A stretch of 61,215 nt of DNA, counting the filler. It is 9 parts of 9 records of this genome, joined end to end, with 100 filler letters (N's around TTAATTAATTAA, not from the genome) between each part and the next. Parts side by side here need not be neighbours in the genome. Positions count along the whole stretch, not along the records: positions 18,220 to 23,232 come from SRR31147125_131226; 8 more parts are not named here. The stretch is one strand, 5' to 3'. The number at the start of each line of letters is the position of its first letter. Position 1 is the first letter of the stretch. Position numbers and translations under genes: made by a program. The notes beneath the pieces were generated by a model. The model was not told the origin of the DNA. It made no database searches and saw nothing but the letters and a program-made list of their open reading frames with translations. Positions 7,873 to 23,232 of the stretch are shown in pieces.

Positions 7873-10800
7873 GACAGTGCTCCTTTCTAATACTAATGGA
7901 ATTACGAACGGGGCGTCCACCCAACCTCGCATCCACGCGATCCGGAGGATTGTCGTTGTCTGGTTCTTCTGCAATCACTCCAAGGTCGTGCTGTCCCCGG
8001 AGGAGGTCAGTTCAAAGCAATCAAAACACAACGAGCCACAAACTTGCAAGGATCCTCGACTCCTCCTTATGTCTGAATGGGTTGCAATGTTTGTATTATC
8101 AGGGAGCCGTGGGGGATGGAATAAGGCGTACCGGTCTTGGATTGTGCGAGTCGAGTCTTGTCCGCAGATGGGGGAATTGGAAGGGGGATATCTAGGTGTT
8201 ACATACGGTCGGTCTTTCAGAAAGGGCGGTCTCCCTCTTCTGGCGCAAACCTCATTTCCTATCTCTTCCATCTCGCGTTCCATGATACCAATAAGTGAAT
8301 CGAGACGTGACACTTCTGATTCCAATCGTTCCTTCTCCCTGAAAACGAAATTCAAGTATGAACAAAGGACAACAGAGATGAGGAGCGCACTGTTCTGATC
8401 CGTCAAGAACAGCAGTAAGTTCGCCATTCTCCTTGGTCAGTCGTTCCACCTCCTACACAAAGGAAGATGAGAAAGGCAACCGTCCCTTTCGTATATCACG
8501 TGTCATACTTGTTGCAGTGTCACGATTTGCAAGGCCCGTTGTGAATCGGGTTCCCGTTTCTCCGCAGCCTCCGCAGCGTCCTATATCCATATTGTTTGAA
8601 ACACAGCAAGGGAAGGGGAAAACGTACCTCTTGGCGCTCGTGAAGAATATCCAACTCAACTTGAAGCACATCTCGCTCACTTTCGCAATCATGGGTCAAC
8701 GCTCAAAGGAGTGCCCACTTCTACGTCACACGTACTACGACATCTGCTTCATAGAACTCATCATCTCCGCCCTCTCTCGGGTGTGAGCTTCAGCTTCTCG
8801 TGCCTAGCCCCTCGTTCAGCCACCGTATGCAACCATCCACGTTCTGGCCTACCTTCTCGGTCTTCAGAGTCTGGACCTGCTGACGCAGATCGGCAAGTTG
8901 CGAGAGCTGACCCTACAAAATTGAGGTGAGGCATTGGCAAACATTCGACAACCGGCCGCCAACCTGCAGACGCTCGCGTTCTCCCGCAAGCTCCTCCAGT
9001 TTGCCCTTCAAATCCTCCTTGTCCATTCGGGCCGCTGACAGGTAAACGCCTCAGATTCAATAATATCAAGGGTGTGTTGCACCTTCCATCACTTCCTTCT
9101 CGGCACGAAGCCGCGCGATCAAGAACTGGGCAGATTCGAGCTCCGTCTGCAATCCCACGTCGTTGTTACCATGCGAAAATGGAAAAAATGCAAAAGGAGT
9201 GTCCCCACAACCTCAAGTTTCTTCATCTTCGCCGTCTTTGCTGCCATGTTCCCGTACTGCTCGCCCTTCCCCGCCAAAAGGGAGGACAATTCTGCATTCA
9301 TCTCTTCCAAACGCTTTGTCTACTAGAAGTCAGTGGGGACGTACGGGCCTACACACACACACACCTGACCCGCGTTCTCGTCAAGCTGTTGCATGAGCGA
9401 GGCGATTTTGCGCGCAAGAGTTGACGCATCAGCACCCGATGTACCCATTTGTGCTTCCTGCATGTGATACCACAACAGGGTCACTTCAATCATCCAGTTT
9501 TCTTCTTGTCAACGCACCACAGCATGGAATTGATCCAAAGCTTGCTTGATCTCACCCTTTTCCTTTTGTAGAACAAGCGCTTCATCTCTAGCCTATGAAA
9601 CATAAAAACATGAGAGACAGAAGCAACCCCAATCCGAACCGACCTTTTTCAGGCGACTCTCAAGGTTGTCCCGCTCCTGACGCAGCCGTGAGATTTGGGT
9701 TTGTTGTTCTCTCACCTGGAGAATTATGAGTGAGCAAGCAAAGAAGGCATGGCAAATGCAACGTACCACTTCTTGGGTTGGGCCATCCGCTGCTGTCATA
9801 CGAAGCTGCACGCAGAGTTACACCAGCCTCATGCAACACATAGAGCCTCCCACCTGGTTTATGGTTTCCTCTAACGCCCGTTTCTCGGCTTTTGTGCGGT
9901 CAAGAGCCATTGAATCACTCTCCAAACGAGAAATCTAGTTCGTTGGACGGTTATGGGGGAAGGAGTCTCCCCGGCCCCTCATGACATGACATACCTTGTG
10001 ACGCATTTCCTCAAGAACGGCACGGTATCCCGTATTGTGCTTTCGAATCTGTGCATTGTCCTCCGTTAACCGACGGATCCTATTGTCCCCCGGCCCGGTG
10101 TCAACAACTGTTAGATGTGTCGATGCAAAACGGGCAAACCTGTCATTGAGCTCAGCTTTCTCCGTGGTCACTTGTTCCATCTTCGTGTACAGTTCTCCGC
10201 GTGCCTCATAGTTCTCTTCCATGCGTTTCACCTATGGCACGTGCATGAGTCGTCCGTCTGTCTGCACACCGCCTCCTCCTCCCCCATCTACCTTCTCTTG
10301 AAGTTTCTGGATCTCGTTCTCGCGACGTCCTTGGTAGTCTGCGTGCATTTGCATGGCTTGAACCTTGTCTTGCTTGAGGGTATCTACTGCCTCATTTAAC
10401 TGATTCAATTCGTCGTTACGCTGCTTGAGGAGAGTCTGGAGGGCGAGTGAATAGATCCAGAAGAAGATGTGCTATTATCGGACCTCGAGGCGTGTATTTC
10501 GCCAGCGAGTAGCTGTCATCTGTTCTGCCAGGGACATATAGTTATCGCGTTCTGACTTGACCTAGGTGCGCATGAGGCTTCCCACCCCACCAAGGACAGG
10601 ACTCACAAGACGGAGTTCTTTCTCGAGCTGCTTCTTCTCGGCCTTGAGGCCCTGAGATGCCACAAGAGCATCATCTCGCTCCGTGGTGAGTTGAGAAAGA
10701 TTTTGTTTGGACTCGTCTGTCAGTGCCTCCAACACCTGACGGAGGGATGCATTGGAAACAGCAGAGACGCCCGGCAACATACGACATACTTCAGCAAGTG

Positions 10801-12808
10801 CTCCCTTCTCTGCTTCGGAGTGTCTGAGGGCAATAGCTTCCTCTTCCAACATGCGGCATCGCGTGCGTAGCTAACAACACCACTCACAACAACGAAGCGA
10901 CCCCATATCGTAACACACCTCCTCGGCAACCGCTTGATTCTCTTCTTGCGTGCTCAGCAGGCCCAAGTTTTCGGCAGCCAGTTGCTTCACTTGCTCCGAT
11001 AGCTCATTCTGGACAGCCTTGAGCTCCCCAAGCACCTCTGCTCTCACGCTGGTGTGAGTACGCGGGTGCACTACCACGTCCTTGACGAACCAGGGTTGAT
11101 CTTGAGGTCCTGAAGGCGATCGAGCTCGCGCTGTGCTTTCGCATGGCTCACACCTTCTTGTAGAGCCCTCTCCTGGCAGGGAGACATGGGAGTCAGCAGC
11201 ACACAGGTACAGCCTCGTCGTGGAGACGGACTTTCATCGCGCTGAAGTCAACGAGGAGGTTGTTGTGTTCATCTCTCATGTTGTCGTACACTTCGCCCAA
11301 TTCCGTCTCAAGTTCTTGGTTCTTGGCCTTTAACACCTATACCACCCCGTTAGAGGATGAGAAGCACTCCATAAAGGCACGTACGCGAAGTTCAGCGAAG
11401 ATGCGATCTTTCTCCAGCAATAACATTTCAACATTGTTCCGTTCAGCTAGGAGGGCCGCTACCATTGCTTCCACCTGCAAGGAAACTCTACCATCCGAAC
11501 AAACGAACAAGAGAGAGGGCGCACCTTACGCAGATTGGTCTTGGCAGCTCCCAACGATTCATCTGCAGAAATAGCCTTGGCGATTCGGCGGGTGACGCGC
11601 GCCTTGGCCCTCTCATCACGGAGGAAGAGGTCCGAGAGATCTTCCAACCCTTGCAAAACTGTGCTGAGCTCCTCCACGATCTACACATTGGTATTGGGCA
11701 CGCGTACAGACACACATCCACACCCCACACCTCATCCTCATTCAGAACAGACGTCGGGACAGATCCCGGAGGGCCCTGGTGCTGGGCGGCAAGCAACGTC
11801 TGAAGTCTTCTCTGAAGCAACTCCTTGTCTTCCTTGAGTCCCAACAACGCCTAAAGGTCATGGATCTGTGAGAGAAGAAGGCCGTGTCACTACTGGCTCC
11901 GTACCTTGTTCTCCTTTGTGAGTTCCTCCAGACGACCCTCCAGCAAGTCCTTCTCTTCAAGCAATCGCCCCAGCGTCTTTGCATGATCGGGAACATCGGG
12001 TCGACCACCCATCACACGATCCACCTGTTTCTCAAATGGACTTCCATTAACCAGGCCGCCGCCCAACACCTCATCCCTACAACCTTACTCTCCACATTCT
12101 TGGGGAGATCAGATGGTACCGGGCGTTGGGGAGCCGCAGAGGGTCCAGGCTGCATTCATAGTGGTGAAACTCCCGTTTTCATCCCATGAAAACCGCACCT
12201 GGGCGGAACTGGACTCATCTTGGCCCTTGGGAGGAGGAGGCGCAGCAGACGGATCCTCCGCTTTGCGTACGAGTCACACACCCTTATGCACGGGGTGAAG
12301 AACACCTTTACGCACGTTGCGCAGAAACGGAAGCAGTGGACAAAGACGCTTCACGTTCCTCGTGCACGTTGAGCGTGTGCCGTAGTGTCTGAGTAGGTAC
12401 ATCAGCAATACGTGAAATGGGCACGAAAATGTCGTCGGGGCACCTTGATTAGATCTTCCTTGTCCAAAAGCACCTTCTTGAACAGGGCAACCTCGGCCTG
12501 GAACCAGATTGACTGAGGAGGACGCACACACACACACACACACACCTGCTGATCAGCAAAATCCGACCGCACTTCATCCAACGCGGCACGATCCACAGCA
12601 CCTTTGTGCGAAATCGTCAGATGGAAACGATCGAACACCACCTCTTCCTCAAGTTGTGGGGGAACGTACCCTGAAGACGAAGTGCCTTGTTTTCTTCAAT
12701 AAGAATCTGACATACCCCCTGTGTGTCAGCTCACAACGCCCGTAATGCACTCCTCACCTTCACTTGAGGCATGACCGCAAGTTTCTCATGGTCCGGTGCC
12801 GAGGCCAT
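7873..12808 (-). CDS. Eukaryotic multi-exon long coiled-coil protein, probably 3' truncated
   Basis: ATG at 12808 (MASAPDHEKLAVMPQVK), then a 39-nt GT-AG intron 12757-12719 with a CTGAC branch motif. Later exons encode E/K/L/Q/R-rich heptad sequence (ELKAVQNELSEQVKQLAAENL; ERLESEVSRLDSLIGIMEREMEE) separated by short GT-AG introns. Confidence 0.75.
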
Positions 12809-13018
12809 CTTTAGGGATTCCTGTTTATGAAGTGCTTCATAGATACGGAGCTATACAACGAGCAGAGAGCAACGTTCAGGCCCATGGACGACCGGCACGG
12901 ACGTCCCCCACCCCCACCCCACCTGTTCCGCCATAGACGAATTCTCACGTTCCAATTGTACAACACGGTCCTCGAGAGACGTCATCGTGTTGTACTCACA
13001 CACCCCCAGCCCTGTCTT

Positions 13019-18219: not shown

Positions 18220-21200
18220 GGGGGGTACCTGGATGAAGTCGTCGAATGTGCTGGTCTTGGATCGAAACGTAATCCAACCTTGTGATCCAAACTTGTCAAG
18301 CGCTGCACTGTACTGTTCCAGAAGTAGCCATCCTTCCTCAACTCTGTGTGCCTGTATGAGGAAAAGGAAGAGAGTGTGTGTGGCGTCGAACACAACCTTG
18401 TGATGTCCTCTTCTGTTTCCGTAAGTCCGTGAAATGCAGGGGCTGGGATATCAAACTGATCACAGTCAGCTGTAATTCCCTTGGATGCCTCAAGAAGCTT
18501 GTCAAACTCTCTTCTCCATTCTTTCACTTTCTCTGCAATGCGGTACGTGATGAAAATCACATAAATCGTTTGCCGTCTCGTACCACAAATGTCCTTCGAG
18601 GCGTGGATGTCGAGTGTCGTCAGATCCTTGGGTTTCAATTCATTCTGAGGAACCGTAAGACGTGAACGGAGTCATATCACCAGGCGAGCATACCCATCGC
18701 GCAATGAAATCCGCGAGTTCGTTTTGCATATCTCCAATGCGCTTCTCCAGTTCCACGCGTAATCTTTGAAACTCATCCCCCAGCATGGTGTCGTGCGCCT
18801 CGAGCGTAAGTTCCAATTGCTAAGCGACAGTAAGACTCGCAAAGGACACCTGTCACGGGAATCGAACCTCCCAACGGGATGCCAATCCCGCAACAGGGAT
18901 GCCGGAGCCGTGTGTGGCCTTCAGTAATTTGTTCTTGTCATCCACAATTGCAATAATGCTTCTCATAGAGCGCTGGGTTCATCACTGGGGGTGAGTGCAG
19001 CATCGAACACACAAGAGAGTACCTTGTCTCGAGAAATCTCTTTGGAAGCCCTCTTGACCTCGGCGATTTGATCAAGGTTCTGAGGACGAACGCCTAGGCG
19101 TGCCATCGATCTATTCATTCACGAAGAATCAGTGCGATACGGCCTCTCCTTTCCGAACATACTTGGTGAGGAATTGACCCACTGTCTCAATGTCGTGTAC
19201 TACGGACTTGCGCAGATGCCGTACAAGACTATCAGCCAATGTTTGCATTTGATCGTCTACGGTTGTTTTGAGTTGAATCAAGGAAATCTTGAAACAATCA
19301 ATCTGAAGGAGCAATCTGAGACCACACCCAAACGAGGAGCGCATGCCTCTCGCACCATCACCGAGTCGGGGAGGTGTTCAACATCACGAGCCCGTGATTT
19401 GAGCATTTTCAAGTTGTGATCGAAATCACGAAGTTCCTGTACGTTCTGGTGAAGTGGATAGAGTGCATGCGTTCAGAAGAAGAAGAAGACAAACGAACAA
19501 ACAAGACCTTTTCCACGAAATCGTCAATGTCAACGGTCCCAAGGACGACCCAGTGCAAATACTTCTTCTGTTCGTCCAAGAGCCTGCAGAATGTACTTTC
19601 TGCTTGTTGAAAGACAACAGCCAGACTATCGGCATTGTTGGGGATCATGTTCTGGGAAACGCGGTGAGTCCCACTTTACTCACACCACAACACCCAAAGC
19701 GCACCTTAAAAACGGGGAATCTCCCACACCGCGGAAGTTCAACGGCACGGTAATGAACTTGCGTAGCTCCTTGTAGTAGTTTGCACGGATCTCTTCCATC
19801 GGGGGTTCAAATTGTAGGGCTCGCATCTTGAAGACCAGACGAATCTCGGTGATGGGAAGAATCTCTCGGGAACACAAAAGGCCTCGGCGGTACCTGCCCA
19901 CGACTCGTTCAGCGCACGCACACACGTCAAAAAAGACGTGCGCACTGATACTCAAGGACTTTGTAGAGTTGATGATCCCAATGGCGTCGCCAGAGTCGTG
20001 TGCTCTTGGAGTTGTATCTTGGCAAACCAACCTAAGAAGCCAACCATGAAGGAACAGAACGTTACGTACCCCTGGTTCTCGACGGAAGCAAGCACGCCGC
20101 GGATCTCTGCGAGAACCTCTTTCCATTTATCACGAGACTTGAGGAGATCCACTTCAAAGAGACGCAGGACCTTCTCGGTGAGAAGAATATGGATCTTTCG
20201 CAGTTTGTTGTTCTCCGCAGAGAACTGTTTGTTCGTTAGGTGCCTGCCACCCATTCGCCCCTCTTGTCCCGCACCTTCTCGGTTGCCACTTGCAAACGGT
20301 GCACATAGCCCTCGAGCTTGGACTGTTGATTCCACGTCACAACGGCTCGTTCATCCGTTACAAGACTTTCAAATTCCTGGGCCCCCCCCCCCCCCCTCGA
20401 TTCATGAACACGATTGATTGAGAATCAACACACCTTTGCGCTTTCTTTCATTAACGGTTGTTGTGAAGGAACAATCTTGGCTCCAACTGTGTTGTGAAAA
20501 CAGGCGACCTGTTTTAGAACCACGCCATACGTATTGCTCGGTTAAGGAGGACAGGAGAGGGGAGCGGGTATTGATTGGACAAATGGGGATATTGATAGAA
20601 CTGCTGAGCCACTTTGGCTACGCTTTTGATGTCTTCGGGGACGTGAAGTCCCATTGCACTCATCTGACGGACCTGGTCCCACCACAGTTATGCATCCATC
20701 ACCAGGCGGAGATTGATAAGCATTCCTACCTCGCGTAGAAGTGTCAAAAGTTCATCGTGAAATTGGACCCTCATCTTCCCATCCGAATAGTCAATAGCCA
20801 TAACAATCTCGTCAACCTTCAAACCCAAGGGATTCGATGCATCCTGTGTGTGCATCAGAACAATTCATCATCCATCCACGACCACACCTTCATGCGCTTC
20901 CTGATTTCAAGAATCCACGAGCGAAAGCCTTCATCGCGCACCTTGCGCATGTCTCGTAACAATGTCGTTGCTTCAGATGTCATAGGGCTGGAAAGGTCAC
21001 CCAACGCATCCTCAATGATAGAAACATACTCCTGGACCTGGAGAGGAAGGATCGGTGTCATGTTGAGCCTTTGACGAATCCGAAGCACCTTGGTAGACGC
21101 CTTGGTAAGTTGCGCGAGGTGATTCACTGCATGGGGAAGGTTCCAACCAGGCGATGGCGGCTCCTCCAGTTCCCCCTTCATCCCTCTCATGAATCGTTTG

Positions 21201-23129
21201 ATCAAGCCAAGAAGTTCCGTCTGTTCCCGTTCTTGTTCCACGTGTGATGAATTCATCAGAAGGACTCAAAACGAACCAAGGGCCTGCCGTATGTTGGGAC
21301 GACGAAGCAACCCCCGGAAACGATAGAGTTCTTGCACTACTTGGTGCGGTTGGGGAGAATTACGAGACGCCAAGGCCTCCTGCATGAAAGGGATGAGAAC
21401 GCCTTCGAATCTGTGGTCTCACAGTGTCAGTGTAGGCGTGCCAGCACGAAGAGCATGCACACCGTGCCCGAAGCTTATCAGCTGTTGCATGTTCGATACG
21501 TTGAATATTGCGTTCATACTCCTCGCGTGCAGCCTACAGGTTGTCGTCACATACGAGCCCCTCCGTAGGGGAACAAGTTCTACCTTCCATGAGGCGTGTG
21601 CCGTCAACTCTCCTCCCAACTCCAACTTCAACCGTCGAAAAGGACGAAAGGCCTCCTCCACGCGTAACTCCCTCTGTTCATCCACGGACAGAAGATGAAA
21701 CAATTCTTCGTGTACTGTTCGAATCGATAAGACCTGTGTGTGCGTGGGCGTGTGAATGTATGGGAAGCCGCAGTAGTGTGAAAGGCAACCTCATCCAAGG
21801 TCTTTGTCAGTCCCTGAAGCATAGGATCGGAATGTGGTCCTCCCTTCCAGGGATGTTCCGTCCACGCAACCCACACATGGGACGTCAAATTCTCTAAAAT
21901 TTGAAGCCATTCACGACACAAACGAACTCCATACACCATCACCTCTTCAACCTGGGCATCCAGATCGATCAAACCAACGTACAATACAGAACACGCATTA
22001 CCTTTTTGAAGGGATCGGTCCACACAGAAAGAGCAGAGACTTTCTTGCGCACATAGAGTGCAAAGTCCGAGCCAGCCATATGAAAGAGATGTGCCATTCG
22101 TGTTTGTGGGAATTTTCCGGCCGGACTTCTCCTGTGTATACGCCGGGCCGCTTAGCAAGGAACGGGATACGACGTCAACACACCAGATTGCATCCAGTGC
22201 ATCTTGCAATGAACGTTGCAGCTCGAGGACGTCCTCAGGTGACATATTCCTTGCTCAATGTGTCACAGTGTGTGTGTGCGCGCGCACGCATACCAAATAG
22301 TCTGAAAACCTTGTGCGATCGGTTGTAGCATGGACGATACTTCTGCGGCATACTGGCGCTGTGACGGGAGGATTGATCGAATTGGTCCCGTGTGTACACC
22401 TCAAACAGAAGAATCGCCACACCTCCGGGGAAGTAGCCGCACGATCCACCCAAAAGGTATATTCATCGTAAATGGAGCGTGGTCCTTGTGCACAGCAACG
22501 TGAGGTGTAAAGTTTGATAAGGGAGAGTCCTTAACACACCATCCTCTGCTGCGTCTTGTTTTCGAATAGCAACGCCAAGACCTGCTTCGAGCTCTGTGAG
22601 GAGTTTGTGTACGTGTTGTTGTTGACTTTGATTGATCCGATCCAACCCAACCCCAACCCCATCAACATCAACAGAATCAGGAAGAATTCCATGCATTGTC
22701 TCGCACCCTGTGAGGAGAGGTCCAAACACATTGTGAAGTGCATTATGAAGGGCGAGAAGAGGAGACGACGAGGGGATGGACGAGAGCGTAACACGCGAGG
22801 CGATCGTATCAACGGTCAAGGGTTCTGGGGCGACCTTGGCGAGGTAGATGGTATGGAGTGCGGAGGAAGGGGCCTTGATGTCATTGGCGACGTCGACCTG
22901 CGTCCCCGTCCCCGTCCCCCATGTCAGGCAGGGGTCGTGGCGACGAACGACGACAAAGGTACCGAACCTGTCGATCCTTTGTGAGAGACGCACGTAGGAT
23001 CGAACACCCCGCGTCCTCTGCGAAGGCCTGAAGGGCGGGGTGTTGTGCCAGTGTCGTCTCTTCGCCACTTCCCACGGCGCCCACGATGCATCGGGCGAGA
23101 GAGAGAGAACACGCATCGCCCCTTCCCAT
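18220..23129 (-). CDS. DYNC2H1: Eukaryotic cytoplasmic dynein-2 (IFT dynein) heavy chain, N-terminal tail region, multi-exon, 3' truncated
   Basis: Manually spliced exons match the dynein-2 tail as recalled: LHNVFGPLL, LLTELEAGLG, LTSHVWVAWTEHPWK, LLTLLREVRQMSAMG, ENNKLRKIH, HWDHQLYKVLEYQY, LQFEPPMEEIRANYYKELRKFI, WITFRSKT. About 29 short introns by hand count. Confidence 0.92.
20531..20592 (-). other. U12-type (minor) AT-AC spliceosomal intron
   Basis: 5' ATATCC, branch motif TCCTTAAC ending 10 nt before a terminal AC. Removal restores QQFYQYGVVLKQVA. Confidence 0.85.
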
Positions 23130-23232
23130 GTGTAAGGGAGAGGGAGGAGGTGTGAGACGTTGGGGAGGAAAGCTATCGATTGAATCCTTGGATTGCTGCC
23201 TCCTTCTTCATCGTCATGCCATTGATTGAATC

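Follow-up and report, generated by a model that had tools for sequence, protein, structure and literature searches.

Minor, or U12-type, introns are defined as a class by their donor and branch-site motifs (PMC3584512), for which the consensus sequences /RTATCCTTT and UCCUUAACU have been given (PMC2846911); the optimum distance from the branch site to the 3′ splice site is described as 11-13 nucleotides (nt) (PMC3584512). As reported in PMC10639083, such introns occur in animals, plants, green algae, fungi (including chytrids and Neocallimastigomycetes), oomycetes, Blastocystis and Amoebozoa (including the anaerobic Pelomyxa), are absent from Discoba, Alveolata and Ochrophyta, and represent no more than 0.5% of introns genome-wide in most species. 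Here we describe a 62-nt insert in the gene for a dynein-2 (intraflagellar transport dynein) heavy chain, located on one contig of a 61,215-nt stretch of DNA, filler included, referred to below as the window. The window is composed of nine contigs chained by spacers in which TTAATTAATTAA is flanked by 44 N on either side, such that features on either side of a spacer are not physically linked, and it mixes prokaryotic-looking contigs with at least one eukaryotic contig, the one that carries this gene. The best reading of the insert, judged from its sequence features, is that it is probably a U12-dependent (minor) AT-AC intron within the region coding for the dynein-2 tail domain.

The insert shares most of its features with the U12-type AT-AC introns of animals and plants represented in U12DB and the intronIC database. 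It has the donor core (/RTATCC) at +1 to +6 in the form ATATCC, an exact match (8/8) to the branch-site motif TCCTTAAC (UCCUUAAC), AT-AC ends and a non-zero phase. Of two candidate branch adenosines, 20543 is 12 nt and 20542 is 11 nt away from the last intron base, which sets the branch-to-3′ distance at 12 or 11 nt depending on the adenosine chosen. The 10 nt past the branch motif are CGAGCAATAC and contain no distinct polypyrimidine tract; a pyrimidine-rich stretch is present upstream of the motif. In contrast to the consensus TT, the donor has CC at +7/+8, and the insert is much shorter than typical animal introns of this class. The donor, the branch sequence, the terminal AC and the deviation at +7/+8 had been pointed out in a first-pass annotation of the window, and each was found where it had been placed, on the minus strand (Table 1).

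The gene model was obtained with a protein-to-genome spliced aligner written for this analysis and run with four dynein-2 references, and the result was then curated. It starts with an ATG at 23129 and comprises 29 exons and 28 introns; the frame stays open for 1,128 codons, lacks a stop and runs off the contig end at 18233. The contig stops at about residue 1,128, ahead of the AAA+ motor domain. A spliced piece of 961 residues was 30-37% identical, across approximately 960 amino acids (E = 0), to proteins named by their sources as cytoplasmic dynein 2 heavy chain 1; these were from chytrids, fish, corals, insects, a streptophyte alga and diplonemids. In addition, one member of a protein cluster was annotated as KEGG K10414. 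The best matches were to dynein-2 and not to dynein-1 or axonemal dyneins, the tail aligned end to end without large gaps, and the only PDB matches of the two exons flanking the insert were DYNC2H1 chains.

The 28 introns include 26 of the GT-AG type, the AT-AC candidate and one apparent GC-AG intron. The GT-AG introns are 44-81 nt long (median 52); their +5 base is G in 19 of the 26, and their -3 base is C in 18, A in 5 and T in 3 of them, and never G. Intron density is 8.3 per kb of coding sequence, which exceeds the ranges quoted in PMC5874029 for animals (1.6-7.8 introns per kb) and for other groups. At least as far as this gene shows, intron density in the host is unusually high.

Further evidence for the assignment comes from the reading frame and from conservation across the junction. 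When translation is continued straight through the insert, a stop is met 20 codons past a conserved FY motif and the downstream frame is shifted, and removal of 2 mod 3 bases is therefore needed. Excision of the 62 nt yields ..AQQFYQYGVVLKQVACFHN.., and the product was compared with relatives in several ways. In human DYNC2H1 (chain 6rla_A), the upstream exon matched residues 792-816 (E 1.2) and the downstream exon residues 820-849 (E 0.067). Each match is weak alone, but the two were the sole matches and were in order; the upstream match ends on F (residue 816) and G is residue 820, and exactly two residues separate FY from G, as in the AT-AC product. The spliced product of the two exons matches the human protein (PDB 6rla, 6sc2) residue for residue without a gap; in contrast to the human protein, the contig holds only the N-terminal 1,128 residues.

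Three junction models, the AT-AC product and the products of two frame-restoring GT-AG introns of 44 and 65 nt (Table 1), were then compared by blastp with 150 homologues from a representative search. The AT-AC product gave 36 matches, 33 of which were gap-free, whereas a gap was required in 32 of 35 matches for the 44-nt model and in 33 of 35 for the 65-nt model. Those rows in which an alternative was gap-free begin past the junction or, in the single case of P0142, span it with the register shifted by one residue. The best score belonged to the AT-AC product in nearly all matches; one exception was P0117, by 0.4 bits.

A profile built from six relatives was used to collect 80 metagenomic dynein-2 loci, and a 150-residue piece of the model centred on the junction served as the query. 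It matched 76 of the 80 loci, and in 75 of them coding DNA continues across the junction without interruption. The 76 uninterrupted matches were all gap-free from -12 to +14 around the junction, and the aligned residues were F in 65, Y in 67, G or A in 75 and L in 75 of the 76. If FY and GV are kept as exon sequence, seven positions are open to a 62-nt cut, and only one of these gives the ends of a known intron class, with ATATCC at +1. The earlier proposal that removal of the insert restores a conserved dynein-2 segment was thus borne out in the human protein, the homologues and the metagenomic loci. In summary of what was observed, the motifs are present, the frame needs removal of 62 nt and the product is gap-free against many dynein-2 sequences; that a minor spliceosome carries out the removal, and that the host has one, is what we infer from these motifs.

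Occurrence of the motifs by chance was estimated with 300 first-order Markov simulations of the window on both strands. A strict pattern (ATATCC, TCCTTAAC within 300 nt and AC 9-16 nt past the branch A) was expected 0.043 times per window and was observed once, at the candidate intron. A looser U12-like pattern was found five times compared to 0.76 expected, and four of these matches are in prokaryotic-looking contigs (30106, 32546, 46341 and 56369, plus strand), where they probably reflect composition or codon bias and not introns. Loose motif pairs alone are therefore weak evidence, and the weight of the case comes from the reading-frame fit rather than from motif pairs. ATATCC itself occurred 34 times on the plus strand of the window, with approximately 15 expected.

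Several other explanations of the insert were considered. The first-pass annotation had recognized a single GT-AG alternative, of 65 nt, giving ..AQHNTYGVV..; a second one, of 44 nt, also restores the frame, and that count has to be corrected. If the 44-nt intron were the one removed, it would be an ordinary U2-type intron, the U12 motifs would be there by chance and the protein would carry a six-residue insertion (..FYQYPHFNTYG..). Its length equals that of the shortest GT-AG intron of the gene, and a tail only 30-37% identical to its relatives has small insertions elsewhere. However, an insertion at the junction was seen in none of the 76 uninterrupted relatives, and a gap was needed in nearly all homologue alignments, as given above. 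Its splice sites are also poor by the standards of the gene: the donor lacks G at +5 and has an A found in only 1 of 26 GT-AG introns, and the acceptor, GAG, has a G at -3 that is found in none of the 26 neighbouring introns. In addition, it leaves the perfect arrangement of U12 donor, branch site and AC unexplained, and we regard it as very unlikely. The 65-nt intron restores the frame as well and was the choice of the spliced aligner with one of the four references (P0010). It uses the same GAG acceptor and likewise has no G at +5, and it fits the alignments no better. As the earlier annotation had argued, it removes the conserved Phe and Tyr and makes the segment one residue shorter; given how often these two residues are retained in relatives (65 and 67 of 76), use of this intron is extremely improbable.

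A different kind of explanation accepts the AT-AC junction but assigns its removal to the major (U2-type) spliceosome, or to a merged or hybrid one, in a host without a separate minor spliceosome. U2-dependent AT-AC introns exist. The small nuclear RNAs (snRNAs) of Giardia are described as U2/U12 hybrids in PMC6679479, the TTAAC within the branch site also matches the loose yUnAy branch consensus, and CC at +7/+8 of the donor weakens canonical pairing with U11 and U6atac. On the other hand, ATATCC is unlike the U2 donors of this gene, in which C at +5 occurs once in 26 introns, and a complete branch-site match at the optimal distance of 11-12 nt is what the minor system recognizes, making this explanation unlikely. 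It could also be proposed that the locus is non-functional, either a pseudogene copy or a product of assembly errors, and that the apparent intron is an artefact. Assembly depth is only about 2-3, another assembly shows a one-base difference in the homopolymer at 18986, and the odd GC-AG intron at 19700 is best explained by a base lost from a T run. Nevertheless, splicing of 28 introns gives 1,128 codons without a stop, which is unexpected for a decayed copy, and a contig that was assembled separately agrees fully over the 3′ half of the intron, with its branch site and AC. Error would have to account for two independent substitutions, a change from G to A in the first base and one from G to C in the last, in addition to the U12 motifs, and an artefact is therefore quite improbable.

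Certain observations do weigh against a U12-dependent intron. The stricter donor rule of Bartschat and Samuelsson, RTATCCTT, is failed because of CC at +7/+8 (PMC2846911); as described there, it permits variation at +5/+6 only, and it is the stringency filter of one study, outside the class definition. None of the 75 relatives that cross the junction has an intron at the AT-AC site, and conserved intron position thus provides no support; the closest of these relatives is approximately 42% identical, over a partial match. Of the four references given to the spliced aligner, three led it to the AT-AC intron, with P0010 as the dissenter, but it also set AT-AC introns that were spurious in the N-terminal part, where conservation is poor, and its choice was for this reason not counted as independent proof. 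Rfam scans of the 61-kb window, with the gathering thresholds and with matches accepted up to E = 1, detected no snRNA, a result of little meaning for 5 kb of eukaryotic DNA. Finally, the quality of the contig is limited. The sole public run that matches it is a DNA run with a depth of about 2-3, and low depth is accompanied by at least one probable homopolymer error, in the 19700 region. In this run, 0.32 of the sampled words were present, and its contigs show no joints and span 20410-20560 but not 20572-20739. The contig identical over 20410-20560 was assembled separately, although it is possibly from the same sample.

If the insert is a U12-dependent intron, the steps of its removal would follow the established model of minor splicing. 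U11, and later U6atac, would pair with the ATATCC donor, and U12 would pair with TCCTTAAC, leaving one adenosine of the pair bulged, at 11-12 nt from the 3′ end. Cleavage at A/TATCC...AC/G would then join ..TAT CA to G TAT GGC.., restoring Tyr-Gln-Tyr-Gly.

Among protists, there is a likeness in intron form to Blastocystis sp. ST1, a stramenopile with short, mostly AT-AC minor introns (median 39 bp, 77% AT-AC; PMC10639083) and with host genes that have short introns. A 62-nt AT-AC intron is thus neither the shortest known nor of an unusual subtype, and its initial description as a very short minor intron is not justified. The two cases differ in phase, which is 2 for the candidate and 0 for about half of the minor introns of Blastocystis, and no sequence link between them was found. 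Blastocystis has no flagella, and dynein-2 is not expected there. Minor introns are also confirmed in Amoebozoa (Physarum polycephalum, Pelomyxa schiedti and Protostelium), of which Pelomyxa is an anaerobic flagellated amoeba (PMC10639083). This likeness is by description, and nothing places the host of the candidate in this group. With regard to the gene itself, no record of DYNC2H1 as a minor-intron gene was found in literature full text or in the supplements of PMC11347168 and PMC10639083, a search whose scope did not extend to intron databases or to the gene structures of named eukaryotes, the human one included; the one paper in which both terms occurred deals, by its title and abstract, with another subject. 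The candidate represents 1 of the 28 introns of the fragment, in contrast to the small genome-wide fraction reported elsewhere; a sample of one supports no rate.

With respect to the host, the best exon-level identity to any protein was 58% (61% over part of an exon), and the top matches were metagenomic proteins. Named relatives were animals, chytrids, a blastoclad, Chlorokybus, diplonemids and brown algae, with approximately 30-36% identity over the tail, and with 43% for brown algae over a single exon only. In a quick maximum-likelihood tree of 28 rows, from which 12 near-duplicate or same-cluster rows had been dropped, the gene was on a long branch with Chlorokybus and with marine and metagenomic sequences (SH-aLRT 96), and the tree weakly places it outside the animal, fungal and diplonemid groups. 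The best score in ESM Atlas, 0.75, was uninformative. A search of a 62-residue exon against proteins of 110-2000 amino acids found no homologue, the 596 pattern matches obtained with a single exon in metagenome contigs included no relative, and an exact 40-mer search of genome contigs gave no match.

Nothing in these relationships supports the initial view of the host as a probable anaerobic flagellate. The suggestion that the intron could extend the known distribution of minor splicing is likewise unsupported; minor introns have already been reported from Amoebozoa, chytrids, Neocallimastigomycetes, oomycetes, Blastocystis and green algae. One free-living metamonad, Kipferlia bialata, is intron-rich, with a GC content of 49.4% and 124,912 GU-AG introns in 17,389 genes averaging 333 amino acids (PMC5874029). 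Its GC content and its approximately seven introns per 1-kb gene resemble those of the contig, and there is no sequence link. It is doubtful that the host comes from a lineage without documented minor splicing, for which a metamonad of the Kipferlia type is one candidate; in that case the intron would be the first sign of U12-type splicing there, and as one of 28 it could also point to a lineage in which minor introns are numerous.

The insert appears to be one more well-formed AT-AC minor intron of a known kind. Current views would change if its host belonged to a group thought to lack minor splicing; otherwise, it is an ordinary example and leaves them unchanged. What the case illustrates is that stray eukaryotic contigs in bins of prokaryotes can carry recognizable minor introns.

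Table 1. Features of the dynein-2 contig and of the candidate intron, with positions counted along the window
Feature	Position	Strand	Details or basis
Contig with candidate intron	18220..23232		5,013 bases; N44-TTAATTAATTAA-N44 at bounds; GC content 0.51
Dynein-2 heavy-chain gene, 5′ part	18233..23129	minus	Own spliced model and homology
Upstream exon	20593..20672	minus	VRQMSAMGLHVPEDIKSVAKVAQQFY plus CA of split codon; 6rla_A alignment, homologues
Candidate U12-type AT-AC intron	20531..20592	minus	62 nt, phase 2; motifs, frame, homology
5′ splice site core ATATCC	20587..20592	minus	Followed by CC at +7/+8
Branch-site motif TCCTTAAC	20541..20548	minus	10 nt from motif to intron end
3′ terminal AC	20531..20532	minus	
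Downstream exon	20434..20530	minus	G of split codon, then YGVVLKQVACFHNTVGAKIVPSQQPLMKESAK; 6rla_A alignment, homologues
Rejected 44-nt GT-AG intron (GTCCAA..CGAG)	20537..20580	minus	Adds six residues, YPHFNT
Rejected 65-nt GT-AG intron (GTTCTA..CGAG)	20537..20601	minus	Alternative of the first-pass annotation; QFYQ replaced by HNT
Neighbouring U2-type GT-AG intron (GTAGGA..CCAG)	20673..20729	minus	57 nt
Neighbouring U2-type GT-AG intron (GTGTGT..CCAG)	20377..20433	minus	57 nt; with 16-G run

The remainder of the window differs in character from the dynein-2 contig, which is eukaryotic. Long open reading frames (ORFs) are dense in seven of the nine contigs, and long-ORF content is low in 18220..23232 and 7873..13018. 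Domains sampled from ORFs of four of the seven ORF-dense contigs were FG-GAP, alpha/beta-hydrolase, Band 7, cation-efflux, glycosyltransferase and methyltransferase, and by ORF density and these domains the ORF-dense contigs look prokaryotic. It is therefore not appropriate to speak of a eukaryotic bin, as had been done at the outset. In the contig at 7873..13018, a coiled-coil coding region was seen on the minus strand, with exon-like blocks in one frame and short stretches bearing TAG, TAA or TGA between them; this contig probably holds another intron-bearing eukaryotic gene. Stop-codon reassignment was considered for it and rejected, as the in-frame stops are located between the exon-like blocks, in stretches that resemble ordinary introns.

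Other observations concern the remaining introns of the dynein-2 gene. The apparent GC-AG intron (19700..19652, minus strand; donor GCTTTG) is the sole option that keeps the frame, and it leaves the protein one residue above the consensus of relatives. A canonical donor, AAG/GTGCGC, is present at 19704, four bases upstream of the GC-AG donor; it follows a five-T run and is one base out of frame. Loss of one base from the T run would explain both the odd intron and the out-of-frame canonical donor, and the apparent GC-AG intron is thus probably an assembly error (positions 19652-19715). The 16-G run (C on the plus strand) in one of the neighbouring introns is at 20380-20397, directly before a CCCAG acceptor, and depth of the public contig is low or nil there. 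In addition, two short sequences are overrepresented on the coding (minus) strand of the contig: TCAATC occurs 7 times, with 1.2 expected, and CAATCAAT occurs 3 times, with 0.08 expected, one copy being inside the AT-AC intron. These sites are mostly intronic or in the 5′ leader, and two overlapping TCAATC are found 12 and 16 nt past the donor of the intron that follows the AT-AC intron. TCAATC and CAATCAAT could be an intronic signal or a repeat remnant.

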